Below, one piece after another: positions 1-53,918 of a stretch of 64,000 nucleotides of DNA. Origin of the DNA: Escherichia coli (GTDB lineage Bacteria; Pseudomonadota; Gammaproteobacteria; Enterobacterales; Enterobacteriaceae); the NCBI RefSeq assembly GCF_046105845.1, contig NZ_CP151004.1. The stretch is one strand, 5' to 3'. The position numbers were made by a program, and so were the translations under genes. Each line of letters opens with the position of its first letter. The stretch's first letter is position 1. The notes under the pieces were generated by a model that did not search any database, was not told the DNA's origin, and was given only the letters and a program-made list of their open reading frames with translations.

Positions 1-398
1 ATATCCCTGAAAGCAGCATTCTTGCCGTTTCTTCGTTTTACCGCACCCCACCGCTGGGGCCGCAAGATCAACCCGATTACTTAAACGCAGCCGTGGCGCT
101 GGAAACCTCTCTTGCACCTGAAGAGCTACTCAATCACACACAGCGTATCGAATTGCAGCAAGGTCGCGTCCGTAAAGCGGAACGCTGGGGACCGCGTACG
201 CTGGATCTCGACATCATGCTATTTGGTAATGAAGTAATAAATACCGAACGCCTGACCGTTCCGCACTACGATATGAAGAATCGTGGATTTATGCTGTGGC
301 CGCTGTTTGAAATCGCGCCGGAGTTGGTGTTTCCTGATGGGGAGACGTTGCGTCAAATCTTACATACAAGAGCATTTGACAAATTAAACAAATGGTAA
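1..398 (+). CDS. folK: HPPK (2-amino-4-hydroxy-6-hydroxymethyldihydropteridine pyrophosphokinase), 5'-truncated at window edge
   Basis: Frame open from position 3 to stop at 396-398; translation ...SSFYRTPPLGPQDQPDYLNAAVALETSLAPEELLNHTQRIELQQGRVRKAERWGPRTLDLDIML... recognised as HPPK C-terminal part. The listed ORF 93..398 starts at an internal GTG. Confidence 0.93.
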   Translation, partial: IPESSILAVSSFYRTPPLGPQDQPDYLNAAVALETSLAPEELLNHTQRIELQQGRVRKAERWGPRTLDLDIMLFGNEVINTERLTVPHYDMKNRGFMLWPLFEIAPELVFPDGETLRQILHTRAFDKLNKW

Positions 399-562
399 TT
401 TATTTATATTGCGAATATAAATATTATCTGAAAATCACACCACCTCTCTTTCCTTAATAACGATTTTACTTTAAACATTTTTATAGAAACATAATATAAA
501 TTCCCGCAGATAAATATCAATCCCATCTCCATACCCTAACCAATTGCACTTGTGAACTTATT

Positions 563-587
563 TTTACTTAATTTTGAATTAAGTAAA
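563..587 (+). promoter_or_regulatory. 11-bp inverted repeat (TTTACTTAATT-ttg-AATTAAGTAAA) in the AT-rich region upstream of the yad fimbrial operon
   Basis: Dyad read directly from sequence, about 180 bp upstream of the yadN start; binding factor unknown. Confidence 0.3.
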
Positions 588-767
588 TTTAATTTGTTCA
601 AAAGCTTCTAAAGTGCACAATAGGCGACCTAATGAACAATGGTTGTAAATTTGGGTAACAAATATCATTGCTCATTAATATCTAACATTTGTTTCTCCTA
701 TTTGTGTCATGAATAGTCATTCTTCAAACATGTAGTCTGACTAATGGAATTTTATTCAAGGATTTTT

Positions 768-1352
768 ATGTCTAAAAAATTAGGTTTTGCCCTGTCTGGT
801 CTTATGCTGGCAATGGTTGCAGGTACTGCTTCTGCTGATATGGACGGTGGTCAGTTAAATATCAGTGGCCTGGTTGTTGATAACACCTGTGAAACCCGCG
901 TTGACGGCGGTAACAAAGATGGCCTGATCCTGCTGCAAACCGCAACCGTTGGTGAAATCGATGCAGGCGTACTCGAAACTACCGTTGGTGCCAAGGCTAA
1001 ACCTTTCAGCATCACCGTTGATTGCAGCAAAGCAAACCCTGCACCGGGCAGCTCTGCCAAAATGACCTTCGGTTCCGTGTTCTTTGGTAACAGCAAAGGT
1101 ACGCTGAACAACGATATGTCTATCAATAACCCATCTGACGGTGTGAATATTGCTCTGCACAACATTGACGGTTCCACTGTTAAGCAGGTAAAAATTAATA
1201 ATCCTGGCGATGTTTACACTAAAGCACTGGACGCGACCACTAAATCTGTAACCTATGATTTTAAAGCATCCTATGTTCGTGCTGTAAATGACCAGACGGC
1301 AACTGCTGGTTATGTAAAAACCAATACCGCATATACCGTTACTTATCAGTAA
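768..1352 (+). CDS. yadN: Fimbrial major subunit-like protein
   Basis: ORF 744..1352; internal ATG at 768 gives signal peptide [23 protein letters not shown]; pilin-like length, Cys pair and C-terminal beta-strand (TVTYQ). Confidence 0.85.
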
Positions 1353-1386
1353 TATTTCACCGAATTAATTGATTTAGTGAATATAT

Positions 1387-1428
1387 AGGGAATAACATTG
1401 CCTGTAATTATGACAATGATTATTCCCT
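1387..1428 (+). terminator. Intergenic hairpin after the major pilin gene (AGGGAATAA...TTATTCCCT), possible partial terminator
   Basis: 9-bp inverted repeat with a ~24-nt loop between yadN and the chaperone gene; no clean T-run. Confidence 0.3.
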
Positions 1429-1457
1429 GTTCTAAATAATTCGATCAGGGATGGTTT

Positions 1458-2198
1458 ATGTTTTTTAATACAAAACATACTGTAGCATTATGCTTTGCAA
1501 CCTGTTTAGCTTTTAGCTCTTCAGCTATTGCAGATATCGTCATTTCAGGTACACGCGTTATTTACACAAGCGATCAAAAAAGTGTCAATGTACGTCTGGA
1601 AAATAAAGGCAATAACCCATTGCTGGTCCAGAGTTGGTTAGATACCGGAGATGATAACGCCGAACCTGGCAGTATCAATGTCCCATTTACGGCGACTCCC
1701 CCTGTTTCACGTATTGACGGCAAACGCGGTCAAACAATCAAGCTGATGTATACCGGCAGTTCTGCTTTACCCAAAGATCGGGAAAGTGTGTTTTGGTTCA
1801 ATGTCCTCGAAGTTCCACCAAAACCCGACGCGGAAAAAATGGCTAACCAAAGCATGTTGCAACTGGCCTTCCGTACTCGCATCAAACTGTTTTATCGTCC
1901 GGAAGGACTCACCGGAATACCGTCCGATGCTCCGGCTGCACTGAAGTGGTCGTGGACAACATCCGGCGGCAAAGTGGCGCTTCGTGTCGTTAATCCTACC
2001 CCCTTCTACGTCTCTTTCAGCAGTGGTGACGTTGTCGCCAGCGGAAAGCGTTATCCGTTAGACGTCAAAATGATCGCGCCACGCAGTGAAGATGCCATCA
2101 CAGTTAATGGGATCAGTAGCAAAGTGAGTTCTGCACAAGTTCACTTCTTTGCCATTAATGATTTTGGCGGCGCAATTGAAGGCAATGCCACTCTGTAA
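1458..2198 (+). CDS. yadV: Periplasmic PapD-like pilus chaperone
   Basis: 246-aa ORF with signal peptide and chaperone-type sequence (…FWFNVLEVPP…); position between pilin and usher genes. Confidence 0.9.
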   Translation: MFFNTKHTVALCFATCLAFSSSAIADIVISGTRVIYTSDQKSVNVRLENKGNNPLLVQSWLDTGDDNAEPGSINVPFTATPPVSRIDGKRGQTIKLMYTGSSALPKDRESVFWFNVLEVPPKPDAEKMANQSMLQLAFRTRIKLFYRPEGLTGIPSDAPAALKWSWTTSGGKVALRVVNPTPFYVSFSSGDVVASGKRYPLDVKMIAPRSEDAITVNGISSKVSSAQVHFFAINDFGGAIEGNATL

Positions 2199-2232
2199 AG
2201 TCTTCAGGATCACACGCAGCAGGAAGCAAAAC

Positions 2233-4833
2233 GTGAACAAAAAAACAACTACAAATTATCACTATCCCCTTACACATATCGCCACGTTTTGCGCACTGCT
2301 TTACAGCAGTAGTGCTTTAAGCGCCGAGCACGTTGAGTATGACAATACCTTCCTGATGGGTCGTGATGCTTCAAATATTGATCTTAGTCGCTATAGCGAG
2401 GGTAACCCAACATTACCAGGCCTTTACGACGTCAGCGTTTATATCAACGACCAGCCCGTCACCAACCAGAGCATTGCCTTTGTTACGGTTGAGGGTAAGA
2501 AAAACGCTCAGGCTTGTCTCACCCTGAAGAACTTATTGCAGTTTCATATCAATCAACCCGATATCAATGTTGCTAATGCCGTGCTGCTTGCAAGGGACAA
2601 CGAACTCGGGGATTGCCTCAACCTGGCGGAACTCATCCCCCAGACGTCGATTCGTTATGATGTCAACGATCAGCGCCTGGACATCTATGTTCCCCAGGCA
2701 TGGGTAATGAAAAATTACCAAAACTATGTTGATCCTTCCTTGTGGGAAAACGGTATCAACGCTGCAATGTTGTCTTACAACGTCAACGCATATCACAGTG
2801 AAAGCCCCGACAGGAAAAATGACAGTGTTTATGCTGCTTTTAATGGCGGTATGAATTTAGGAGCATGGCGGTTACGCGCTACCGGTAACTACAGTTGGAG
2901 GAATGATTCAGACAGTAACTATGACTTTCAGAATCGCTACCTCCAGCGCGATCTCGCATCCTTACGCTCGCAGTTAATTGTCGGTGAGTCATATACCACG
3001 GGTGAAACCTTCGATTCAGTCAGCATTCGGGGAGTTCGCTTATATAGCGACAGTCGCATGTTACCCCCTGCGTTAGCCAGTTTTGCGCCAATTATTCATG
3101 GTGTTGCGAACACTAACGCCAAGGTCACTATTACCCAGGGCAGTTATAAGATCTATGAAACCACCGTACCGCCAGGTGCGTTTGTCATCGATGATCTTAG
3201 CCCATCGGGTTACGGCAGCGATCTTATCGTCACTATTGAAGAAGCGGATGGTTCAAAGCGTACTTTCTCACAACCATTTTCATCAGTTGTACAGATGTTA
3301 CGGCCAGGCGTCGGGCGCTGGGATATCAGCGGTGGTCAGATCATAAAAGACGATATTCAAGACGAGCCCAATCTTTTTCAGGCCAGTTATTACTACGGTT
3401 TAAACAACTATCTGACCGGTTATACCGGGATCCAACTTACTGACAATCATTACACTGCCGGATTACTGGGTCTGGGCCTGAATACCTCTTTAGGTGCTTT
3501 TTCATTCGATATCACCCATTCAAATGTCAGCATTCCGGATGATAAAACCTATCAGGGGCAAAGCTATCGCCTCTCCTGGAACAAATTATTCGAAAATACC
3601 AATACATCGCTAAATATCGCGGCTTATCGCTATTCAACGCAGAATTACCTTGGCCTTAACGACGCACTGACTTTAATCGACGAAGTAAAACATCCGGAAC
3701 AGGACCTCGAACCGCAAACCATGCGTAACTACTCTCGCATGAAAAATCAGGTGACGGTCAGCATTAGCCAACCGCTGAAATTTGAGAAACAGGATTACGG
3801 TTCATTCTATCTCACCGGGGATTGGTCAGATTACTGGGCTTCCGGGCAAAATCGCAGCAATTACTCTATTGGTTACAGTAATAGCGCTTCCTGGGGGAGT
3901 TACAGCATCAGTGCACAACGTTCATGGAATGAGGATGGTGAAACGGATGATAGCATCTACCTTAGTTTCACCATTCCAATTGAAAAATTATTAGGCACAA
4001 GCCATCGCGATTCCGGTTTTCAGAGTATTGATACTCAGTTAAATAGTGATTTTAAAGGCAATAATCAGCTCAACATCAGCAGCAGTGGCTTTAGCGACGC
4101 AAATCGCGTCAGTTACAGCGTAAACACCGGCTATACAATGATGAAAGCCAGTGACGATTTAAGTTACATCGGTGGTTATGCCAGTTACGAATCGCCCTGG
4201 GGAACGCTTGCAGGTTCCGTTTCCGCAAGTAGCGATAACAGTCGTCAATTCTCGCTTAATACTGACGGTGGATTCGTGCTGCACAGCGGCGGCCTGACAT
4301 TCAGTAACGATAGCTTTAGCGACTCCGACACACTTGCCGTTGTACAAGCCCCTGGAGCAAAAGGTGCGCGCATTAACTATGGCAACAGTACAGTAGACCG
4401 CTGGGGATACGGCGTGACCAGTGCCCTCTCGCCATATCATGAAAACCGTATCGCTCTGGACATTAGCGGAATCGAAAATGATGTAGAAATGAAATCTACC
4501 AGTGCAATTGCCGTCCCTCGTCAGGGCTCTGTTGTCTTCGCCGATTTTGAAACCGTCCAGGGACAATCGGCAATCATGAATATTAAACGTACTGACGGTA
4601 AAAATATTCCATTCGCGGCGGATATCTTTGATGAACAAAATAACATGATTGGTAACGTCGGCCAGGGCGGACAAGCTTTTGTTCGAGGCATCGAACAGCA
4701 AGGTAATATCCGCATCAACTGGGTTGAAGAGGGTAAACCTGTCGCATGTATTGCCCATTATAAGCAAACAGCGGATCAACAAAAATTAACACAAACTATT
4801 ATTCTGAATGGAATTAGTTGTCAGATACAGTAA
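2233..4833 (+). CDS. htrE: Outer membrane fimbrial usher
   Basis: 894-aa ORF (2149..4833) overlaps the chaperone 3' end; GTG at 2233 preceded by AGGAAG is the more likely start (~866 aa); usher-like size and sequence. Confidence 0.88.
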   Translation: MNKKTTTNYHYPLTHIATFCALLYSSSALSAEHVEYDNTFLMGRDASNIDLSRYSEGNPTLPGLYDVSVYINDQPVTNQSIAFVTVEGKKNAQACLTLKNLLQFHINQPDINVANAVLLARDNELGDCLNLAELIPQTSIRYDVNDQRLDIYVPQAWVMKNYQNYVDPSLWENGINAAMLSYNVNAYHSESPDRKNDSVYAAFNGGMNLGAWRLRATGNYSWRNDSDSNYDFQNRYLQRDLASLRSQLIVGESYTTGETFDSVSIRGVRLYSDSRMLPPALASFAPIIHGVANTNAKVTITQGSYKIYETTVPPGAFVIDDLSPSGYGSDLIVTIEEADGSKRTFSQPFSSVVQMLRPGVGRWDISGGQIIKDDIQDEPNLFQASYYYGLNNYLTGYTGIQLTDNHYTAGLLGLGLNTSLGAFSFDITHSNVSIPDDKTYQGQSYRLSWNKLFENTNTSLNIAAYRYSTQNYLGLNDALTLIDEVKHPEQDLEPQTMRNYSRMKNQVTVSISQPLKFEKQDYGSFYLTGDWSDYWASGQNRSNYSIGYSNSASWGSYSISAQRSWNEDGETDDSIYLSFTIPIEKLLGTSHRDSGFQSIDTQLNSDFKGNNQLNISSSGFSDANRVSYSVNTGYTMMKASDDLSYIGGYASYESPWGTLAGSVSASSDNSRQFSLNTDGGFVLHSGGLTFSNDSFSDSDTLAVVQAPGAKGARINYGNSTVDRWGYGVTSALSPYHENRIALDISGIENDVEMKSTSAIAVPRQGSVVFADFETVQGQSAIMNIKRTDGKNIPFAADIFDEQNNMIGNVGQGGQAFVRGIEQQGNIRINWVEEGKPVACIAHYKQTADQQKLTQTIILNGISCQIQ

Positions 4834-4849
4834 CAACAAGGAATCTCAC

Positions 4850-5416
4850 ATGATAAAAATAGCACCCTATAAATTGGCGATACTGACGGGAATAATGTTA
4901 TCTCCTTGTGTATTAGCTACGGATATTAATGTCGAATTTACGGCAACCGTAAAAGCAACGACATGTAATATTAAGATAACCGGTAATAATGTCACCGAAG
5001 ACGGAAATGACAGTTATACGTTAACATTACCCAATATGGGTCTGGATCAAATAGTAAATAAAACCACCAGGGCCCAGGCTGACTTTACGATGGTAGCCAG
5101 TGGTTGCAGTGCAGGTATCAGCCATATTGATACTACATTGTCAGGTAATGGGTCCCGAACCTTTGATAGACTTGTTATACCGCTGTCTTCAGACACCACA
5201 TCAACCACCAGTTATATCGGTATGGGGTTCAAAAAACGTAATGCTGGTGATGAAACATTTTTAAAACCAAACAGCGCAGAAAAAATACGCTGGAGTGCAA
5301 CAGAAATTAGTACCACAGGTCTGGAAATGACCGTGGCACTACGTGAAACGAGCGCAGGTGAGGGGATACCCGGAGACTTTCGTGCTCAGGCAATTTTCAA
5401 TTTCACCTATGAATAA
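4850..5416 (+). CDS. yadM: Fimbrial minor subunit-like protein
   Basis: ORF 4808..5416; ATG at 4850 preceded by AAGGAA gives signal peptide MIKIAPYKLAILTGIMLSPCVLA; pilin-like. Confidence 0.8.
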   Translation: MIKIAPYKLAILTGIMLSPCVLATDINVEFTATVKATTCNIKITGNNVTEDGNDSYTLTLPNMGLDQIVNKTTRAQADFTMVASGCSAGISHIDTTLSGNGSRTFDRLVIPLSSDTTSTTSYIGMGFKKRNAGDETFLKPNSAEKIRWSATEISTTGLEMTVALRETSAGEGIPGDFRAQAIFNFTYE

Positions 5417-5421
5417 CAAGG

Positions 5422-6036
5422 ATGACAATGATGAAATTTAAACCTTCACGTTTTGGATTATCGACTGCAACTATTCTGGCGGCATCAGTGCTCACTTTTT
5501 CGTCATTTGCTGCGACTGATAGCGTTAAATTAAATGTAAAAACCACGGTAGAAATGGGAACCTGTACAGCCAGTCTGGTTGATGATAATGATCAAACCAT
5601 TTCTGTCGTTGCTTTTGGCGATGTTTATATTTCTGAAATCAATGCAAAAACAAAAATCAAAACCTTTAAATTACAGTTTAAAGACTGCGCGGGGATACCT
5701 GGCAAAAAAGCTAAGATTAAACTGACAAAACGTGCCACCTGTGAAGGAGCAAGTAACGACGGTCCCGGTTTTGCTAATGGCTCCACGGCTAGCGATAAAG
5801 CAAGTGCTGTTGCGGTTGAAGTGTGGAATACGAGCACTCCAGCAGTTGGTAGTGCCACACAATTCAGTTGCGTTACCCCAGCCGATCAGGAAGTGTCTAT
5901 TGCCACAGCCACGGGGAATACAGTTGTAGATTATCCGATGAGTGCGCGCCTGGTCGTGGATAAGAGTAAAACCGTAAGCGATGTTACAGCGGGCACATTT
6001 TCAGCACCAGCAACTTTCTCTGTGACATACAACTAA
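5422..6036 (+). CDS. yadL: Fimbrial minor subunit-like protein
   Basis: 204-aa ORF with signal peptide, pilin-like; start may be the internal ATG at 5431. Confidence 0.8.
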   Translation: MTMMKFKPSRFGLSTATILAASVLTFSSFAATDSVKLNVKTTVEMGTCTASLVDDNDQTISVVAFGDVYISEINAKTKIKTFKLQFKDCAGIPGKKAKIKLTKRATCEGASNDGPGFANGSTASDKASAVAVEVWNTSTPAVGSATQFSCVTPADQEVSIATATGNTVVDYPMSARLVVDKSKTVSDVTAGTFSAPATFSVTYN

Positions 6037-6062
6037 CGGCACGTCGAATTCAGGAACTGATT

Positions 6063-6659
6063 ATGCTTTCCTCTAAACGTAAAATTAAGAAAAAAACAGG
6101 TCTGTTCCTGGCATTCATATTCACTACTTCCTTTTCGGCCTTCGCCGGGCAGGATATTAATTTAACTGCGAATGTAAAAAACAGCACTTGCCAGAGCGGT
6201 ATCAGTAATCAGGGAAATATAGATCTGGGTGTGGTTGGCGTGGGCTATTTTGCTGGTAATATTCCTCCCGAGAGTTATCAGACTGGTGGTAAAGAGTTCA
6301 CCATATCGGTGAAAGACTGTGCATTTCAGGGAACAGGAAATGTCTTAAATCAACTACACATAGACTTTAGGGCACAAAGTGGTGCAATGGCTAATGGTTC
6401 CCGACAAATATTTGCCAATGAAATTTCGTCAGGGGCGAGTAATGTAGGAGTGGTTATATTTTCTATCCAGGATTCGGCGAATATATTCAATGTTCTTAAT
6501 GCTTCAGGCGGTTCTCGCTCCGTTTATCCAGTAATGTCGGATGACATGAATGGTTCGTCCTGGAAATTTAGCACCCGAATGCAAAAAATTGATCCTGCAT
6601 TGAGTGTTACATCTGGTCAACTTATGAGCCATGTGTTAGTTGATATTTACTACGAATAA
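6063..6659 (+). CDS. yadK: Fimbrial minor subunit-like protein
   Basis: 198-aa ORF with signal peptide; pilin-like. Confidence 0.8.
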   Translation: MLSSKRKIKKKTGLFLAFIFTTSFSAFAGQDINLTANVKNSTCQSGISNQGNIDLGVVGVGYFAGNIPPESYQTGGKEFTISVKDCAFQGTGNVLNQLHIDFRAQSGAMANGSRQIFANEISSGASNVGVVIFSIQDSANIFNVLNASGGSRSVYPVMSDDMNGSSWKFSTRMQKIDPALSVTSGQLMSHVLVDIYYE

Positions 6660-6708
6660 CGAACAAAAATAACACCAACTCTAACAAAAACTCAATACTG
6701 GAGTAAAA

Positions 6709-7944
6709 ATGAAGACACTCTTCAGATACTTTCTTTTTTTAGCACTGTATTCTTGTTGTTATACAGTTAGTGCATATACAAGTTTTATTGTGGGAAATAA
6801 TGCAGGAGTTGATAATTATAAAGGACCTTCCACTGCTGCACGGGTAACCTTTAATTACACATCAACAGCAAGCAACCTGGTTTTTTATAAACCCACGCAA
6901 CTCGGCCCGACAGGGGTAAAAATGTACTGGTCATACCTGGACACGGGTCCGAGTGGTATTCTTTACTGTAATACATCTGGCAGAGCAAATCCTGGGCCAA
7001 TAACCATTGAAAATGCCATGGTTTATTCAGGTAAAGATTATGGTGGACATAAACTCTTTAAGACATCTGTTCCTGGTCTGTATTACACCATGTTAATATC
7101 AAGGGTCTGGTCTGCATACAATACAACAACTGATATTCAATCACCAGGAATCTATATCGGAGACACTTCAACCCAACAATTTCACTTCTCCATAACAGAC
7201 AACGATCTACAAACCAAGGGTTGCAACAAAGCAAACAGCTACGATAAGTTTTGGGCTATTGGTGGTGTTGTACACGACATAACTGTTGAATTTTATACAG
7301 ATGCTAGTTTCGATCCTACACTTAATCAGCAAGTCCAGTTATCCAGTTCATCCGATTACCTTTATGCGTTTAAGGCCTACAGTCCAGGTACCAGAGTCGT
7401 AGATCATAGCCATCACCTTTATGTCAATTTCACACTGAATAATGTCAAATTAACCTTACCAACATGTTTTACCTCCATACTTACCGGATCATCAGTCAAT
7501 GGTTCAACGGTTAGAATGGGAGAGTATAGTTCCGGGACAATTAAAAATGGAGCGTCACCTGTTCCCTTTGATATCTCGCTTCAGAATTGTATTCGTGTGC
7601 GTAATATTGAAACAAAACTCGTCACTGGAAAAGTAGGTACTGAAAACACACAACTGCTTGGCAATACGCTTACCGGAAGTACTGCTGCTAAAGGCGTTGG
7701 CGTACTCATTGAAGGATTAGCAACCAGTAAAAATCCGCTAATGACATTAAAACCTAACGATGCAACCTCTATTTATAAAGATTATGAAACCGAAGATGAC
7801 ACATCCGATGGAGTATACCCTAATCAAGGTAGCGGCACATCACAGCCTCTTCACTTCCAGGCAACGTTAAAACAAGACGGAAATATCGCTATCGAATCCG
7901 GTGAATTCAAAGCCACCAGTACCTTCCAGGTAACCTATCCTTGA
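6709..7944 (+). CDS. yadC: Fimbrial tip adhesin-like protein (two-domain)
   Basis: 411-aa ORF with signal peptide; last gene of the chaperone-usher operon; C-terminal pilin-like strand (FQVTYP). Confidence 0.8.
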
Positions 7945-7951
7945 TGACATT

Positions 7952-7980
7952 ACCGCATCGCCATCATCTGGCGGTGCGGT
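7952..7980 (+). terminator. Hairpin downstream of yadC (candidate operon terminator)
   Basis: ACCGCATCGCC-atcatct-GGCGGTGCGGT, 11-bp stem with one G-U pair, immediately after the yadC stop; weak T-tract. Confidence 0.4.
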
Positions 7981-8056
7981 AATTGATAAATCATTGCCCC
8001 CACCAATGTGACTGATAAAATGCCAGACAGCACGACATTACTTATCAGGATACGTT

Positions 8057-8851
8057 ATGAAACCAACCACTATTGCTTCATTGCAGAAATGCAAGCAGGA
8101 CAAAAAACGTTTCGCGACCATCACCGCTTACGACTATAGTTTCGCAAAACTGTTTGCCGATGAAGGGCTTAACGTGATGCTGGTCGGCGATTCACTGGGC
8201 ATGACGGTTCAGGGGCATGACTCCACCCTGCCAGTTACCGTTGCCGATATCGCCTACCACACTGCTGCCGTACGTCGCGGTGCGCCAAACTGCCTGCTGC
8301 TGGCTGATCTGCCGTTTATGGCGTATGCCACACCAGAACAAGCCTTTGAAAACGCCGCAACGGTTATGCGTGCTGGGGCCAACATGGTCAAAATTGAAGG
8401 CGGTGAGTGGCTGGTAGAAACCGTACAAATGCTGACCGAACGTGCCGTTCCTGTTTGTGGTCACTTAGGTTTAACCCCACAGTCAGTGAATATTTTCGGT
8501 GGCTACAAAGTCCAGGGGCGCGGCGATGAAGCGGCCGATCGACTGCTCAGCGATGCATTAGCATTAGAAGCGGCAGGCGCACAACTTCTGGTGCTGGAAT
8601 GCGTACCGGTTGAACTGGCAAAACGTATTACCGAAGCGCTGGCGATCCCGGTTATTGGTATTGGCGCAGGCAACGTTACCGATGGACAGATCCTCGTGAT
8701 GCACGATGCGTTCGGCATTACTGGCGGTCATATCCCTAAATTTGCCAAAAATTTCCTCGCTGAAACGGGCGACATCCGCGCGGCTGTGCGGCAGTATATG
8801 GCTGAAGTGGAGTCCGGCGTTTATCCGGGCGAAGAACACAGTTTCCATTAA
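8057..8851 (+). CDS. panB: 3-methyl-2-oxobutanoate hydroxymethyltransferase
   Basis: 264-aa ORF recognised as PanB ([33 protein letters not shown]...). Confidence 0.96.
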
Positions 8852-8862
8852 GGAGTCACGTT

Positions 8863-9714
8863 GTGTTAATTATCGAAACCCTGCCGCTGCTGCGTCAGCA
8901 AATTCGCCGCCTGCGTATGGAAGGTAAGCGCGTGGCGCTGGTGCCAACAATGGGTAATCTGCACGATGGCCATATGAAGCTGGTTGATGAAGCCAAAGCC
9001 CGCGCCGATGTGGTCGTCGTCAGTATTTTCGTTAACCCGATGCAGTTCGACCGCCCGGAAGATCTGGCACGTTATCCACGGACCTTGCAAGAGGACTGCG
9101 AAAAGCTGAACAAGCGCAAAGTGGATTTAGTTTTCGCCCCTTCGGTAAAAGAGATCTACCCGAACGGTACAGAAACCCACACCTATGTTGATGTTCCCGG
9201 TCTTTCTACCATGCTGGAAGGTGCCAGCCGTCCGGGACATTTTCGCGGCGTTTCGACTATCGTCAGCAAGCTGTTCAATCTGGTCCAGCCGGACATCGCC
9301 TGCTTCGGTGAAAAAGATTTTCAGCAACTGGCGCTGATCCGCAAAATGGTTGCTGATATGGGCTTTGATATTGAGATTGTCGGTGTGCCAATTATGCGTG
9401 CCAAAGACGGTCTGGCGCTGAGTTCCCGTAACAGTTATCTGACGGCGGAACAACGCAAAATTGCGCCCGGTCTGTACAAAGTTTTAAGTTCGATTGCCGA
9501 CAAATTGCAGGCTGGCGAACGGGATCTCGATGAAATTATTGCTATTGCCGGGCAAGAACTGAATGAAAAAGGCTTCCGCGCCGATGATATTCAGATTCGT
9601 GATGCCGACACATTGCTGGAAGTCTCTGAAAACAGCAAACGTGCAGTGATTCTGGTAGCCGCCTGGCTTGGCGATGCCCGCCTGATCGACAACAAAATAG
9701 TCGAACTGGCGTAA
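8863..9714 (+). CDS. panC: Pantothenate synthetase
   Basis: 283-aa ORF recognised as PanC (…[15 protein letters not shown]…); GTG/TTG-type start 12 nt after the panB stop. Confidence 0.96.
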
Positions 9715-9729
9715 TGCTTAACTGGCGCT

Positions 9730-9758
9730 ACGGCTGATGGCGCCAGTTATTCATTGCC
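9730..9758 (+). terminator. Hairpin after panC (AACTGGCGC-loop-GCGCCAGTT)
   Basis: Perfect 9-bp stem directly after the panC stop; T-tract weak. Confidence 0.45.
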
Positions 9759-9786
9759 ACGTTATCTGTAAGCGATTATTCATAAC

Positions 9787-9962
9787 GCAGACAACTTAGT
9801 TAGAGTTAATTAGCTTATCAACCTCTGTAAGAGGTAAAGTTGTCACCTCTGCAACGTCTTCCCGAGACATTCCTTTACTCAGAAGACGCTGGGCGAATTC
9901 CTGACTTACCTCCTGTCTAACCGCCAGCCTTCCCTTCTCTTCAAACCACTGCGCCAACGTCT
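9787..9962 (-). repeat. Diverged direct duplicate of the rpnC 3' end (partner copy about 10053..10268)
   Basis: Copy A and copy B align base-for-base over about 176 bp (e.g. TCTGCAACGTCTTCCCGAGACATTCCTTTACT, GGGCGAATTCCTGACTTAC, CTTCAAACCACTGCGCCA); copy A lacks the 12-bp repeat block present in copy B. Confidence 0.85.
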
Positions 9963-9993
9963 GCCTGGTTTCTCTCCGTGTCTTTATTTCCAT
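9796..9993 (-). pseudogene. Orphan ORF homologous to the C-terminal tail of RpnC (gene fragment or stand-alone RpnS-like small protein)
   Basis: 65-aa ORF MEIKTRRETRQTLAQWFEEKGRLAVRQEVSQEFAQRLLSKGMSREDVAEVTTLPLTEVDKLINSN, close to the last ~60 aa of the adjacent RpnC; own ATG with weak AGGG 6-7 nt upstream. Confidence 0.5.
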
Positions 9994-10061
9994 ATGTTCC
10001 CTTAATTATCTGGTCAGTTAACAATAACAATTATCTGGCTAAAACTGATAATGCAGATAAC

Positions 10062-10274
10062 TTAGTTAATCAGTTTATCAATCTCAGCAAGAGGTAAATT
10101 TGCCATCTCTGCAACGTCTTCCCGAGACATTCCTTTACTTAGAAGACGCAGGGCGAATTCCTGACTTACTTCCTGTCTTCCCTGCTGAATCCCCTTCTCA
10201 ATTCCTTTCTCCATTCCTTTCTCAATCCCCTTCTCAATCCCTTTCTCTTCAAACCACTGCGCCAGCGTCATCAT
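10062..10274 (-). CDS. Putative intragenic small protein (RpnS-like), in-frame C-terminal 70 aa of rpnC
   Basis: In-frame ATG-ATG at 10274/10271 preceded by GGGAGGAG (10280..10287 on + strand, reverse complement) with 7-nt spacing; matches the described Rpn intragenic small-protein arrangement. Confidence 0.45.
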   Translation of the reverse strand: MMTLAQWFEEKGIEKGIEKGMEKGIEKGIQQGRQEVSQEFALRLLSKGMSREDVAEMANLPLAEIDKLIN

Positions 10275-34888: not shown

Positions 34889-35048
34889 GGGTTATTCCTT
34901 ATCTATCTAATAACGTTGAGTTTTCTGGAACCTGTCCCATTGAACTCTCGCCGGAAAGCTCAATAAGACAGGTTCTACGTTTAGTTGCCGCGCTTTTATA
35001 TGCGCTTGATTTACAACATCTTCTGGATAATTTTTACCAGAAAAATCA

Positions 35049-46856: not shown

Positions 46857-46915
46857 TGTCTTAAACCTATAAAAAAGGCGCAGAATCCTGCGCCTTTTAC
46901 TTCAACTGTTAGCTT

Positions 46916-49621
46916 TTATTGCAGGCGACCATGGCACTGCTTGTATTTTTTACCAGAACCGCACGGGCAAGGATCGTTACGTCCTACTTTGCGTTCACCG
47001 GTTTGCGCCGCCAGTGCAGCTGCGGCTGCAGAGTCGTCATCCTGATGGCTAAGCTGCTGCATTTGCGCTAAACGCTCGGCTTCCATACGACGCTGTTGTT
47101 CCAGCTCCTCAACCTCTTCAGGCATACGTACCTGAACTTTGCTCAGCGTGCTGATAACTTCATATTTCAACGACTCCAGCATCGCTGCAAACATGGAGAA
47201 CGATTCACGTTTGTATTCCTGCTTCGGATCTTTCTGTGCATAGCCACGCAGGTGGATACCCTGACGCAGATAGTCCATCGCTGCCAGGTGCTCTTTCCAC
47301 AGAGAGTCGAGAGTTTGCAGCATGACGCCTTTCTCGAAGTGACGCATCATCTCTGCACCAACCACTTCTTCTTTACGCTGATACACTTCGATGGACTGCG
47401 CCAGAATGCGCTCACGCAGCGTCTCTTCATGCAGTTCTGGTTCTTTATCCAGCCACTCAGCAATTGGTAAATCGAGGTCGAAATCGTTCTTCAGACGTTC
47501 CTGCAGCCCCGGAATATCCCACATTTCTTCCAGCGACTGTGGTGGAATGTAGGCATCAATGGTCGCTTTGAACACATCTTCACGAATGCTGTTGATGGTT
47601 TCGCTCACATCGCTGACATCCAGCAGTTCGTTACGCTGGGAGTAAATGGCGCGACGCTGATCGTTAGCCACGTCATCATATTCCAGCAGTTGCTTACGAA
47701 TGTCGAAGTTACGACTTTCAACTTTACGCTGGGCGTTGGCAATCGCTTTAGTCACCCACGGGTGTTCAATGGCTTCGCCTGGCTTCATACCCAGTTTACG
47801 CATCATGCCGGATACTCGGTCGGAAGCAAAAATACGCATCAGCGCATCTTCCATCGACAGGTAGAAACGGGAAGAACCAGCATCCCCCTGACGACCAGAA
47901 CGACCGCGCAACTGGTTATCGATACGACGGGATTCGTGACGCTCGGTACCGATGATATGCAGGCCACCTGCTGCCAGTACCGCATCGTGACGTACCTGCC
48001 AGTCGGCTTTAATTTTTTCAATTTGCTCTGCGGTCGGATTTTCCAGCGCGGCAACTTCTGCCTGCCAGCTACCACCGAGCACAATATCTGTACCACGACC
48101 CGCCATGTTGGTCGCGATAGTCACCGCAGCCGGATAACCTGCCTGAGCAACAATCGCCGCTTCGTTGGCGTGGAATTTGGCGTTCAGGACATTGTGCTTA
48201 ATACCGGCTTTGGTCAGTTCGTTTGACACCAGCTCCGATTTTTCGATGGAGATAGTACCCACCAGCACCGGCTGGCCTTTCGCAGTACGTTCTTTGATAT
48301 CTTCAATGATCGCCTGAATTTTTTCCGCTTCAGTCATGTAGACCAGGTCCGGCAGATCTTTACGAATCATTGGACGGTTGGTCGGAACAACGACGGTATC
48401 CAGCTTGTAGATGGAGCTAAATTCGAAAGCTTCGGTATCAGCAGTACCGGTCATCCCCGCCAGTTTTTCATACAGACGGAAGTAGTTCTGGAAGGTGATC
48501 GACGCCAGCGTCTGGTTTTCGTTCTGGATCTGTACACCTTCTTTCGCTTCCACTGCCTGATGCAGGCCATCGGACCAACGACGTCCCTGCATGGTACGAC
48601 CGGTGTGTTCGTCAACGATGATAACTTCACCATCTTTAACGATGTAGTCGACGTCTCGGGTAAACAGCGCATGAGCGCGCAGCGCCGCCGTTACGTGGTG
48701 CATCAGCATGATGTTGGCCGGAGAGTACAGAGACTCCCCTTCATCCATGATGCCTTCTTTCACCAGCAGTTCTTCAATCAGCACCAGACCACGTTCGGTC
48801 AGGTTCACCTGGCGAGATTTTTCGTCCACCGAGAAGTGGCCTTCGCCCTGGAAGGTTTCGGAGTCTTCTTTTTCCTGACGGATCAGGTGCGGAATAATTT
48901 TATTCACGCGTTTATACATTTCCGAGCTGTCTTCTGCCGGGCCGGAAATGATCAGCGGTGTACGCGCTTCATCGATCAGGATGGAGTCCACTTCGTCCAC
49001 CAGCGCATAGTGCAGTTTACGCTGTACACGTTCTTCAGGGCTGAACGCCATGTTATCGCGCAGGTAGTCAAAGCCGTATTCGTTGTTCGTACCGTAAGTG
49101 ATGTCAGCTGCGTAAGCTTCACGCTTCGCCGGTGCTGGCATGCCCGGCAGGTTGATACCGACAGTCAGGCCAAGGAATTCAAACAGCGGACGGTTGTTTT
49201 CGGCGTCACGTTGCGCCAGGTAGTCGTTGACGGTAACAACGTGTACGCCCTTACCGGTTAATGCGTTCAGGTAAGCAGGCAGCGTTGCGGTCAGGGTTTT
49301 ACCTTCACCGGTACGCATTTCGGCGATGCAGCGTTCGTTAAGAACCATACCGCCGAGTAACTGAACGTCGAAGTGACGCATACCAAAGACGCGCTTACTT
49401 GCCTCACGCACCACGGCGAAAGCTTCCGGGATCAGATTTTCCAGCACTTCGCCTTTTTCCAGACGTGCACGAAACTCTGCGGTTTTCCCTTTCAGTTCTT
49501 CGTCGGAGAGTTTTTCCATCTCCGGTTCCATGGCATTGATGATGTTGACCACTTTGCGCATCCGGCGCAGGGTGCGATCGTTACGACTACCGAAAACTTT
49601 AGTTAATAATTTGATTAGCAT
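46916..49621 (-). CDS. secA: Preprotein translocase ATPase SecA
   Basis: 901-aa ORF recognised as SecA, including C-terminal zinc-binding [14 protein letters not shown]. Confidence 0.98.
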
Positions 49622-51443: not shown

Positions 51444-52595
51444 TTAATCAGCTTGCTTACGCAGGAATGCTGGGATATCCAGATAATCCGGCTCTTTCGC
51501 AGTTTGCGGCGCATTGTCATTCACGACTTTAGCAACCGGCTTCTGCTCCTGGGTCAGCGGAGCCATCCCGTGCTGCTGGTAGCGATCCATCACTGGCTGC
51601 TGAACCTGCTTATTGGTCACCAGAGTGATTTCAGGACGTTTGTCCATGCCGATACCTGTCGCAACAACAGTTACGCGCAGCTCGTCATTCATATCCGGGT
51701 CAAGAGAAGTACCAATAACCACAGTCGCGTTGTCGGAAGCAAATGCACGGATGGTGTTACCTACCGTTTCAAACTCATCCAGACGCAGGTCGAAGCCCGC
51801 CGTGATGTTAACCAGCACGCCGCGTGCGCCAGACAGGTCGATATCTTCCAGCAGCGGAGAAGAGATAGCCATTTCAGCAGCTTCTTCCGCACGGTCTTCA
51901 CCACTCGCCACGCCAGAACCCATCATTGCGTAGCCCATTTCAGACATTACGGTGCGTACGTCTGCAAAGTCCACGTTCATCAAACCCGGACGAGTAATCA
52001 GTTCGGCGATACCTTGCACAGCGCCTTTGAGTACGTCGTTCGCTGCGCCAAACGCATCCAGCAGGGAGATACCGCGGCCCAGAACTTTCAGCAGTTTGTC
52101 GTTCGGGATCGTGATCAGAGAGTCCACATGTTTGGACAGTTCAGTGATCCCCTGCTCCGCGAATGCCATACGCTTCTTGCCTTCAAAGTTGAAAGGCTTA
52201 GTGACGACAGCAACGGTCAGGATACCCAAATCTTTTGCCACTTCAGCGACGACTGGAGCTGCGCCTGTACCGGTACCACCACCCATACCCGCAGCAATAA
52301 AGACCATGTCTGCACCTTCCAGCGCCGCACGCAGTGCATCGCGATCCTCATCAGCCGCATTACGGCCAACTTCTGGATTAGCGCCAGCGCCCAGTCCTTT
52401 GGTGATACCGCTACCGATTTGAATCGTCTGTCCAACCGCTGTTTTACGCAGCGCTTGTGCATCGGTATTTACCGCGAAGAATTCAACACCTTCAATGCGC
52501 TCGCGCACCATGTGTTCAACAGCATTACCGCCGCCGCCGCCGACGCCGATGACTTTAATCACCGCGTCATTGGTAAGTTCCATTGGTTCAAACAT
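51444..52595 (-). CDS. ftsZ: Cell division GTPase FtsZ
   Basis: 383-aa ORF with tubulin signature GGGTGTG. Confidence 0.98.
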
Positions 52596-52655
52596 AGTTT
52601 CTCTCCGATTTGTGCCTGTCGCCTGAGGCCGTAATCATCGTCGGCCTCATAAAAA

Positions 52656-53918
52656 TTAAAACTCTTTTCGCAGCCAACTATTGAGTCGCTTGATCCACGA
52701 GCCAACTGATGCTGTAACACGTTTTTCTACTTCAGCTTCACCGTTAAGATGTGACTCTTTTCCATAGTGAAGCAATCCCACCGCCGTCGAATAATACGGC
52801 TCCTGAGCATAATCCGTTAAACCGGTAATGTTCAGCGGCGCGCCGATACGCACTTGCGTATGAAACACGCGCTGAGCACAGGCTGCAAGACCTTCGATCT
52901 GCGCTGCGCCACCAGTTAAAACAATGCCTGCCGCCAGGTGATGTTTAACCCCTTGTTGGCGAAGCTTTTCCTGCAACTGCAATATCTCTTCGTTGACCAG
53001 GTTGAGCAGCTCGGTATAGCGCGGCTCGATCACCTCTGCCAGGGTCTGACGTTGCAGACTCCGCGGCGGACGACCACCTACGCTCGGCACTTCCACGCTC
53101 TCATCTTTTCCAACGATGGAACCCAGCGCACAACCGTGGCGAACTTTAATCGCTTCGGCGTCGCTTGGCGGCGTGCCAAAGGCGTAAGCGATATCACTGG
53201 TCACGACATTGCCAGCATAAGGAATTACCTTAGTGTGGCGCAATGCCCCACCGGTATAAACGGCGATATCCATTGTACCACCACCGATATCGACGACGCA
53301 GACACCCAGTTCACGTTCATCTTCCGTCAATACCGAATAACTTGATGCCAGTCCGGCAAATATCAGTTGGTCAACTTTCAGCCCACAACGTTCAACCGCT
53401 TTGACGATGTTTTTCGCCATATCGTTGTGACATGTGATCAGGTGCACTTTTGCCTGCATCCTCACGCCCGAAAGTCCTACCGGATTCTTGATCCCTTCCT
53501 GATAGTCAATCGCATACTCTTGCGGGATCACATGCAGCACACGATGCTCATCGCGCACACGCACCGATTTCGCGGTATGGACGACGTTTTCCACATCTTC
53601 TTGCGTCACTTCTTCTTCAGAAATAGGCACCATACCAATTTCATTCTGGCAGCTGATGTGCTTACCAGAAAGCGCCAGATATACCGAAGAGATCTGACAA
53701 TCTGCCATCAATTCTGCCTGGTCAATGGCGCGTTGTACGCACTTGACCACGGATTCGAGGTCGTTCACCCCGCCTTTATCCATACCACGTGACGGGCAGC
53801 TGCCCACGCCAATGATATTGACCATACCGTCGGGCAGAACTTCCCCTACTAAAGCGGCAACCTTCGCGGTACCAATCTCCAGTCCTACTACCAGTTTTCT
53901 GTCCGTCGCCTTGATCAT
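52656..53918 (-). CDS. ftsA: Cell division protein FtsA
   Basis: 420-aa actin-like ORF; dcw cluster synteny. Confidence 0.97.

Follow-up and report, generated by a model that had tools for sequence, protein, structure and literature searches.

An intact and strongly diverged allele of the yad chaperone–usher fimbrial operon in Escherichia coli

Results

We are highly confident that positions 768–7,944 of the window (the whole 64,000-nucleotide stretch of Escherichia coli DNA that we analysed) carry the E. coli yad operon, in an intact allele of this gene set for thin, flexible chaperone–usher fimbriae of the gamma-4 class. This identification rests on intact open reading frames, Pfam and NCBIfam matches, synteny with K-12, structural models of YadC and YadK and the mark of purifying selection, as well as on a conserved usher start, a hairpin found at all loci compared, an AT-rich upstream region and published work on Yad. 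The operon is already known, and its regulator, ligands, role in infection and allelic variability have all been published; the locus is ordinary except for a few annotation details and for its allelic form, which is rare and strongly diverged.

Seven reading frames on the plus strand, with no internal stops, follow each other in the order yadN-yadV-htrE-yadM-yadL-yadK-yadC. They lie between folK and panB, and both the order and the site are those of K-12 b0135–b0141 in the annotated MG1655 and SCU-102 regions; the entire 64-kb window is collinear with K-12 92–158 kb. The gene set is thus that of K-12 and uropathogenic Yad (yadN-yadV(ecpD)-htrE-yadMLK-yadC, b0141–b0135), and the hairpin after yadN and the context of the usher start are conserved as well. 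The present allele differs in having lost the in-frame stop ahead of the usher start and in having an interrupted U tract after the hairpin. A first-pass annotation made from the sequence had proposed a seven-gene operon with exactly these outer coordinates, and all of its reading frames were intact on re-translation. The names, order and roles that it gave to the genes (major pilin, chaperone, usher, three minor pilins and two-domain adhesin) agree with synteny, with Pfam and NCBIfam and with structure predictions.

Pfam matches were far past chance (Usher, 1.8e-153; PapD_N, 1.7e-44; Fimbrial, 2e-12 to 6e-5), and five of the proteins (the chaperone, the usher, YadL, YadK type and YadC) exceeded curated NCBIfam equivalog cut-offs. 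For YadN and YadM, NCBIfam has no Yad-specific model; they matched StaA and StaD, respectively, below cut-off. The components by which classical chaperone–usher systems are recognized are all present: a two-domain PapD-like chaperone, an usher, pilin subunits and a two-domain adhesin. A search of Rfam returned no matches within the operon.

The major pilin YadN (194 amino acids; 768–1,352; PF00419, 2e-12) is 94.9% identical to K-12 YadN and 100% identical to the SCU-102 protein at the amino-acid level. Its sequence includes a signal peptide and an N-terminal extension, a Cys pair and, at the C terminus, TYQ; the ATG at 768 is preceded by an AAGGA Shine–Dalgarno sequence in a leader that is invariant in all alleles. 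The three minor pilins are encoded downstream of the usher. YadM (188 amino acids; 4,850–5,416; PF00419, 4e-18) shares 69.6% of its amino acids with K-12 YadM; its start is ATG 4,850 and not the 4,808 of the reading-frame list, and PGAP places the same start in SCU-102. YadL (202 amino acids; 5,428–6,036; PF00419, 6.9e-10), for which ATG 5,422 is an alternative start, scored 368 bits against a cut-off of 206 with the equivalog NF011797, and YadK (198 amino acids; 6,063–6,659) scored 286 bits against a cut-off of 132 with NF011794. PF00419 was above cut-off for YadN, YadM and YadL; YadK was the weakest Pfam match, at 23.8 bits under a gathering cut-off of 25.6. An AlphaFold2 model of YadK (pLDDT 69.9; core 70–88) matched FimI, FimA, FimF, FimG and PapH with TM scores of up to 0.74. 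The pilin hallmarks can be read directly from the sequences: besides a signal peptide and an N-terminal extension, these are a Cys pair and a C-terminal strand whose penultimate residue is Tyr. The earlier description of four pilin paralogs holds at the level of the family, although pairwise BLASTP gave just 21–31% identity with E-values of 1e-4 or worse.

The last gene, yadC (6,709–7,944), encodes a protein of 411 amino acids that domain content and structure prediction identify as a two-domain tip adhesin. A signal peptide (residues 1–22) is followed by a receptor-binding domain (residues ~23–245; nucleotides 6,775–7,443), which replaces the N-terminal extension of the pilins, and by a C-terminal pilin domain (residues ~246–411; nucleotides 7,444–7,941). 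The predicted structure of YadC matched fimbrial adhesins and pilins, in a fold search that gave no indication of which half of the protein aligned to lectin-only structures. YadC and YadK thus model as adhesin and pilin, as the first-pass annotation had them. Searching the PDB with the single YadC sequence gave no matches; a profile of 38 YadC sequences gave weak matches to the pilin domain alone (FimA, 3e-4). No Pfam family matched residues 23–245 at E ≤ 10. An alignment of yadC across strains, which had been proposed as a check for diversifying selection, yielded no gene-wide signal: pairwise Nei–Gojobori dN/dS was 0.08–0.22 in the receptor domain and 0.08–0.20 in the pilin domain, with most pairs saturated at synonymous sites, where this method is weak. 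Positive selection acting on yadC as a whole was not supported.

The chaperone gene yadV (ecpD; 1,458–2,198) encodes a periplasmic PapD-like protein of 246 amino acids (PapD_N, 1.7e-44; PapD_C, 2.5e-16) that scored 442 bits against a cut-off of 285 with the equivalog NF007398. Read directly, the mature sequence has Arg8 and the Lys in RIKLFYRP. The outer-membrane usher HtrE (866 amino acids from GTG 2,233; 2,233–4,833) matched PapC_N (1.4e-43), positions 1–549 of the 549 in the Usher profile (1.8e-153) and PapC_C (3.2e-18), and it scored 1,652 bits with NF007337.

Where the usher begins had been described as ambiguous, with an overlap of the chaperone gene. The frame is indeed open upstream to ATG 2,185 and TTG 2,149, across the chaperone stop at 2,198, but the overlap is specific to this allele. 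In six related alleles (K-12, LF82, CE10, S22EC, E. fergusonii and Escherichia sp. E4742), the usher GTG lies 34 nt past the chaperone stop and is preceded 21 nt upstream by an in-frame TAA, which excludes the upstream starts there. This TAA has been lost in the present allele; AGGAAG-N6-GTG is invariant across alleles. Allele comparison therefore places the homologous start at GTG 2,233, behind an AGGAAG Shine–Dalgarno sequence, and as a consequence yadV and htrE do not overlap. We consider it very unlikely that the usher instead begins at ATG 2,185, overlapping the last 14 nt of yadV in a translationally coupled arrangement. That codon is present in an open frame, and PGAP picked it in the near-identical SCU-102, giving a protein of 882 amino acids; however, the 16 codons upstream of GTG 2,233 have no counterpart in other alleles, the match to the 865-position NCBIfam usher profile sets in at residue 3 if the protein begins at the GTG, and, were translation to begin at ATG 2,185, the signal peptide would reach its hydrophobic core only after a charged stretch of ~30 residues, which is unusually long. 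The conserved TAA and the invariant AGGAAG likewise speak for GTG 2,233. With that start, the RefSeq usher is over-extended by 16 codons in this allele class, and its annotation would need to be corrected.

A stem-loop (GGGAAUAA..UUAUUCCC; 1,385–1,430, plus strand) follows the major pilin gene and is a probable partial terminator or stabilizer of the mRNA 3′ end. It had been noted at 1387..1428, and folding confirmed it: the yadN–yadV intergenic region folds at −27.3 kcal/mol compared with −17.9 ± 2.8 kcal/mol for shuffles (z = −3.3; 0 of 200 shuffles were as good). All ten loci examined have a hairpin at this position, and in strain 746 and Superficieibacter the stem sequences are unrelated to the others. 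Among the eight homologous alleles, 89.6% of cells pair, compared with 38–55% when the partner is slid, and the PD23 hairpin has one pair with an A-U to G-C double change; covariation among these eight was not above that of column shuffles. We therefore base the hairpin on its conserved position and on the hairpins of unrelated sequence rather than on statistics.

In the present allele, the stem is followed by UGUUCUAAAU, in which the U tract is interrupted; the U run of an intrinsic terminator immediately 3′ of the stem is absent, and a terminator scan did not flag the site. Most other alleles have UGUUUU or U7 right after the stem. The hairpin of the present allele is thus at best a weak or partial terminator, and it may act on RNA stability. 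That it sets subunit stoichiometry, as had been proposed, is plausible. It is unlikely, but deserves some weight, that the stem-loop has no role in dosage and is an incidental AT-rich palindrome or a DNA element that binds protein or nucleates H-NS. The interrupted tail and the non-significant covariation would suit such an element, and we found neither hairpin experiments nor transcript mapping specific to Yad in the literature; the words terminator, hairpin and stem-loop do not occur in PMC13245861. Against it stand the position kept in ten of ten loci (including the two with unrelated stems), the double change in PD23, the loss of pairing with slid partners, the U-rich tails of most alleles and published quantitative PCR with reverse transcription, in which genes within the yad operon respond unequally. 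We favour a role in dosage and regard the hairpin as a regulatory candidate that could explain these unequal transcript responses, for which the 2026 paper that noted them offers no mechanism. For hairpins after major pilin genes in general, we found no usable statement in the literature to cite. Baga et al. reportedly described, in the 1980s, a stem-loop after the major subunit gene of pap together with differential mRNA abundance.

Upstream of the operon, the folK–yadN intergenic region (399–767, plus strand) is a putative promoter and regulatory region with a GC content of 27.4%, compared with 43.8% in the operon and 52.3% in the remaining window. Across eight aligned alleles, it contains conserved blocks against a diverged background. 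One candidate operator is an imperfect palindrome at 555–595 (inverted repeat I1; 19-nt arms, 84% complementary), whose core, ACTTAA..TTAAGT, is kept in most of the eight aligned regions while its surroundings have diverged. A Pap-like or Fim-like phase switch upstream was considered and rejected: the region lacks GATC sites, its repeats do not make a convincing invertible element, and neither a regulator gene nor a recombinase gene lies close by. At the other end, a G+C-rich 15-bp stem-loop just past the yadC stop (7,949–7,983, plus strand) is the probable terminator of the operon. The yadC 3′ region folds at −37.7 kcal/mol (z = −4.05), and the stem-loop is followed by UGAUAAAUCAUU, which is not a strict U tract and was not flagged by the terminator scan. 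Counts from the generic promoter and terminator scan did not exceed shuffle expectation, and its rules on loop length and T runs account for its missing both hairpins.

The present allele is rare, with about 43 of 5,421 matching records within 5% of it. Compared with K-12, nucleotide identity per gene is 72–92% and amino-acid identity is 70–95%, and dS is above 1.9 in yadV, htrE, yadM and yadL. The allele is a mosaic: its yadC and upstream region resemble those of K-12, whereas the middle genes do not and are saturated at synonymous sites relative to other alleles. Nevertheless, dN/dS against five other alleles is 0.03–0.22 in every gene, which indicates purifying selection.

These values bear on whether the operon is a silent evolutionary relic, one that H-NS keeps silenced, that this strain never assembles and that is heading to decay, a reading to which we give very little credence. 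Its promoter region is rich in AT, silencing of this region by H-NS has been published, and the operon has decayed in some strains and is therefore dispensable: in the pseudogenized copy of CE10, htrE contains an internal stop, yadM is frameshifted and yadC carries an IS3, and the usher of strain 746 is frameshifted. Here, by contrast, all seven reading frames are intact, low dN/dS despite saturated dS points to long purifying selection, and published work reports inducible expression and fitness defects of Δyad mutants.

The divergence extends beyond the operon into folK and panBC, with folK at 88–98% amino-acid identity within E. coli, and there are recombination breakpoints inside the operon. 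HtrE is 84–88% identical both among E. coli allele classes and in comparison with E. fergusonii or Escherichia sp. E4742, and the YadN of one E. coli is 99% identical to the E. fergusonii protein. We suggest, as a tentative possibility, that the folK–yad–panB interval is a long-lived polymorphism that crosses species boundaries. Balancing or frequency-dependent selection on a surface antigen, or on a target of phages or of immunity, could produce such a pattern, as could repeated transfer across species; simple diversifying selection on the adhesin would fit it less well. A published survey of Yad alleles reports variation and recombination but not this cross-species reading. Between YadC allele classes, receptor-domain identity falls to 42–69%, which makes the rare, intact and deeply diverged allele of this strain relevant to typing by Yad genes and to targeting of YadC.

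Discussion

The receptor and the conditions of expression had been called unreadable from the sequence; this is true, but both have been addressed in published work, which reports that YadC binds xylose and annexin A2 (PMC6921372), that the yadN promoter is repressed by H-NS, that Yad is induced by serum, with YadN at the surface and a fitness defect in the bloodstream (PMC13245861), and that Yad belongs to the gamma-4 class by usher phylogeny and has flexible fibres (PMC7098969). H-NS repression, surface assembly and binding of xylose and annexin A2 were published for K-12, CFT073 and EC958; in the present allele, the sole sequence feature consistent with H-NS repression is the 27% GC of the upstream region.

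Gene content, domain content, synteny and intactness were observed here, and expression and assembly of this allele are predicted. Transcription would begin in the AT-rich region upstream of yadN, which H-NS silences and cues such as serum relieve according to published work. The stem-loop 33 nt past the yadN stop would most likely raise the yadN message over the downstream message, by partial termination or by protection of the 3′ end, and so supply major subunit in the surplus required for a fibre. HtrE would be translated from GTG 2,233 behind AGGAAG and not from the upstream in-frame ATG. By analogy with the Fim and Pap paradigms, Sec would export all subunits, YadV would cap each pilin by donor-strand complementation and HtrE would recruit the chaperone–subunit complexes and polymerize them by donor-strand exchange. 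YadC would enter first and form the tip; the minor pilins YadK, YadL and YadM would come next, in a relative order that we leave unspecified, and YadN would be added last in many copies.

Type 1 (Fim) and P (Pap) pili share with Yad a PapD-like chaperone, an usher with N-terminal, barrel and C-terminal domains, a two-domain tip adhesin and pilins polymerized by donor-strand exchange. The YadC and YadK models match FimH, FimA, FimI, FimF, FimG, PapG, PapA and PapH in structure, although sequence identity is just 10–22%, and the YadC receptor domain shows no sequence relationship to its FimH or PapG counterparts. Unlike Fim and Pap, Yad has no fimB/fimE-type switch, papI/papB regulators or upstream GATC sites, and its fibres are thin and flexible whereas those of Fim and Pap are rigid rods (PMC7098969). 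The best non-Yad NCBIfam matches are to Salmonella Sta fimbriae (StaA–StaG): YadN to StaA (6e-35), YadM to StaD (1e-37) and YadL to StaE (3.5e-55). Sta belongs to another genus and another locus, and all scores are below equivalog cut-offs, a similarity short of established orthology; the matches suggest a relationship to gamma-4-type operons.

An intact yad operon in a rare allele

Seven successive + strand ORFs lie between the folK 3' end (stop at 398) and panB (8057-8851). With their best starts they are yadN (768-1352), yadV (1458-2198), htrE (2233-4833), yadM (4850-5416), yadL (5428-6036; ATG 5422 is an alternative), yadK (6063-6659) and yadC (6709-7944), all without internal stops. RefSeq lists the same seven genes flanked by folK and panB in SCU-102 and K-12 MG1655 (b0141-b0135), and the entire 64-kb window is collinear with about 94-158 kb of K-12. 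ORFs, family matches and RefSeq annotation thus confirm the seven-gene fimbrial operon proposed by the first-pass annotation. The 8-kb yad region has a match in 5,405 of 5,426 complete E. coli genomes, spanning at least 80% of the query in 4,020 of them; the top matches (SCU-102, 19KM1776, PCN033 and 7CC) each reach 99.0%, and about 43 of 5,421 matching records lie within 5% of this sequence. The finding is correct and ordinary: this is an already known system, of the gamma-4 class with thin, flexible fibres (PMC7098969), in a rare allele. We add a settled usher start, a hairpin at the same site in 10 of 10 loci, and the depth and spill-over of allelic divergence, which alone retains some research interest.

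Pfam assigned PapD_N and PapD_C to the chaperone YadV, and PapC_N, Usher and PapC_C to HtrE. The fimbrial domain PF00419 matched YadN, YadM and YadL, was restricted to C-terminal residues 263-410 in YadC, and scored 23.8 bits in YadK, slightly under the gathering score of 25.6. NCBIfam equivalog cut-offs were exceeded by the chaperone, usher, YadL, YadK type and YadC; YadN and YadM matched Salmonella StaA and StaD, respectively, both under the cut-off. Direct reading of the translations found a Cys pair in each of the four pilins, together with a signal peptide, an N-terminal extension in which hydrophobic residues alternate, and a C-terminal strand ending in Y-x. YadC has about 220 additional residues behind its signal peptide in place of the pilin N-terminal layout. 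In pairwise BLASTP the four pilins are 21-31% identical, at E-values no better than 1e-4, and their earlier description as paralogs holds at family level but not beyond it.

We modelled YadC with AlphaFold2 from an alignment of 38 homologues (42-98% identity), obtaining a mean pLDDT of 87.3. The top Foldseek matches in the PDB were the full-length two-domain adhesins FimH, LpfD, CupB6, PapG and FocH, at E-values of about 1e-7 and a low global TM of 0.26-0.39. We infer that these matches belong to the N-terminal domain (the tool does not give the aligned part), for which Pfam and the PDB gave no sequence match. Published YadC ligands are xylose and annexin A2 (PMC6921372; PMC12442223). YadK, the protein with the poorest Pfam score, gave a model (pLDDT 69.9; core 70-88) that resembled FimI, FimA, FimF, FimG and PapH at a TM of at most 0.74. 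On these predictions YadC and YadK model as adhesin and pilin folds, which does not refute the finding.

The usher start

An ambiguous usher start overlapping the chaperone gene had been noted. Read upstream, the htrE frame continues through ATG 2185 to TTG 2149 and so overlaps the end of yadV (stop at 2198); in SCU-102 the NCBI pipeline chose the equivalent of ATG 2185, giving 882 aa. Across seven aligned alleles, the yadV-htrE junction has an invariant GCAGGAAGC followed by the start codon. This start is a GTG, 34-35 nt past the chaperone stop, in K-12, LF82, CE10, S22EC, E. fergusonii and Escherichia sp. E4742, and an in-frame TAA 21 nt upstream makes a longer usher impossible in these six. 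The window and SCU-102 carry gatcaca instead of gatataa, a change that removes the stop and lengthens the open frame by 108 nt. With its 865 positions, the usher profile of NCBIfam begins to align at residue 3 of HtrE translated from the GTG. Because of the conserved junction, the TAA in six alleles and the profile fit, the homologous start, judged by sequence, is GTG 2233, giving 866 aa without overlap with yadV, and the ambiguity is a peculiarity of this allele. The open frame upstream of 2198 is real; the overlap disappears.

RefSeq usher starts disagree among genomes: in SCU-102 (L001 3186) the gene is lengthened to the upstream ATG, and in PD23 (L006 8088) it starts at ATC, a non-start codon 12 nt past the conserved GTG. 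Immediately behind the htrE GTG, an A7 run at 2239-2245 (GTGAACAAAAAAAC), found only in this allele class, is a possible slippage site; we found no evidence of length variation in it.

Hairpins at the yad locus

For the 111-nt spacer between yadN and yadV the folding energy is -27.3 kcal/mol, compared with -17.9 +/- 2.8 for shuffles, and the main stem-loop of the spacer is 1385-1430. A dominant hairpin occupies the same position in the folded spacers of K-12, LF82, CE10, S22EC, PD23, strain 746, E. fergusonii, Escherichia sp. E4742 and Superficieibacter; the element is real, and a hairpin is maintained at this site in all ten loci, the window included. Eight of the ten share a GGGAAUAA/UUAUUCCC stem, and the stems of strain 746 and Superficieibacter are unrelated in sequence. 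In the eight-allele alignment, pairing was retained in 89.6% of cells, compared with 38-55% when partners were slid, and three stem pairs had changed on both sides, one from A-U to G-C in PD23; covariation values were no better than those of column shuffles. UGUUUU or U7 follows the stem in most alleles and UGUUCUAAAU lies 3' of it in this window, where a terminator scan did not flag the yadN hairpin. Partial termination or 3'-end protection at the hairpin would leave more yadN message than downstream message. Of the earlier proposal that it sets stoichiometry, the hairpin itself is established and the dosage role is one we infer. Genes within the operon respond unequally, according to a 2026 paper on Yad that mentions neither hairpin nor terminator (PMC13245861).

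Folding placed a second, G+C-rich hairpin with a 15-bp stem at 7949-7983, directly after the yadC stop; it is strong and lacks a clean U tract. Positions 7994-8021 resemble a promoter for panB.

The Superficieibacter locus (L008 4091-11275) has the seven-gene architecture of yad and is located elsewhere in the chromosome, with cysG on one side and the yhfS-yhfZ cluster on the other. Its proteins are 32-59% identical to those of the window, and its own hairpin stands behind the major pilin gene.

Allelic divergence in and around yad

Nucleotide identity to K-12 in 1-kb bins is 96-99.6% across most of the window, 71-84% over 1001-7000 and 91-93% over 7001-11000. Relative to K-12, yadC has a dS of 0.26 and yadN one of 0.61; yadV, htrE, yadM and yadL give 1.9-2.3 or no computable value. 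This pattern makes the allele a mosaic. Whole-gene dN/dS is 0.03-0.19 for all seven genes, and the maximum of 0.22 is reached in the YadC receptor domain only. Compared with other alleles, this domain is 42-88% identical and the YadC pilin domain 57-95%. E. coli yad alleles are as distant from each other as from those of E. fergusonii and Escherichia sp. E4742. A published survey of 911 operons found YadN, chaperone and usher conserved, the minor pilins and YadC variable (the lectin domain most), and recombination across phylogroups (PMC13245861).

The identity valley extends past yad, into window 1-398 (folK) and 7001-11000 (yadC, panB, panC and rpnC). Among E. coli strains, identity in the C-terminal part of FolK is 88-98%, a distance as large as that between E. 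coli and E. fergusonii. Identity to K-12 is 91-93% for panB, panC and rpnC against the 96-99.6% baseline, with dS of 0.33 for panB and 0.20 for panC. It looks as if these housekeeping flanks hitch-hike with old yad alleles.

The operon is decayed or remodelled in some strains. In CE10 (L004 8083-14498), htrE contains an internal stop, yadM is frameshifted and yadC is truncated beside an IS3; strain 746 (L007 6623-13135) has a six-gene version with two minor pilins only and a frameshifted usher.

Upstream region and remainder of the window

H-NS represses Yad fimbriae and human serum induces them; in a mouse model of bacteraemia they are required for full fitness (PMC13245861). The upstream region (399-767) has a GC content of 27.4% and no GATC sites, and the operon has 43.8% GC compared with 52.3% in the remaining window; these low values fit the published H-NS silencing. 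An alignment of eight upstream regions is almost invariant over its final ~30 nt (ATGGAAT..AAGGATTTTTATG). An imperfect palindrome at 555-595 (core ACTTAA..TTAAGT), retained in most of these otherwise diverged regions, could be an operator for some regulator.

Core genes in 10000-34000 (gcd, acnB, lpd, aceEF and others) reach at most 98.0-98.1% full-length identity among the 5,426 complete genomes, below the 99.0% of the best yad match; the lineage of the source strain is poorly represented in complete genomes. Three Rfam matches outside the operon exceeded their gathering scores: PssrA (52587-52676, - strand) at the ftsA/ftsZ junction, tp2 (34891-35004, + strand) in the pdhR-aceE interval, and STnc40 (46871-46940, - strand) at the secA 3' end.
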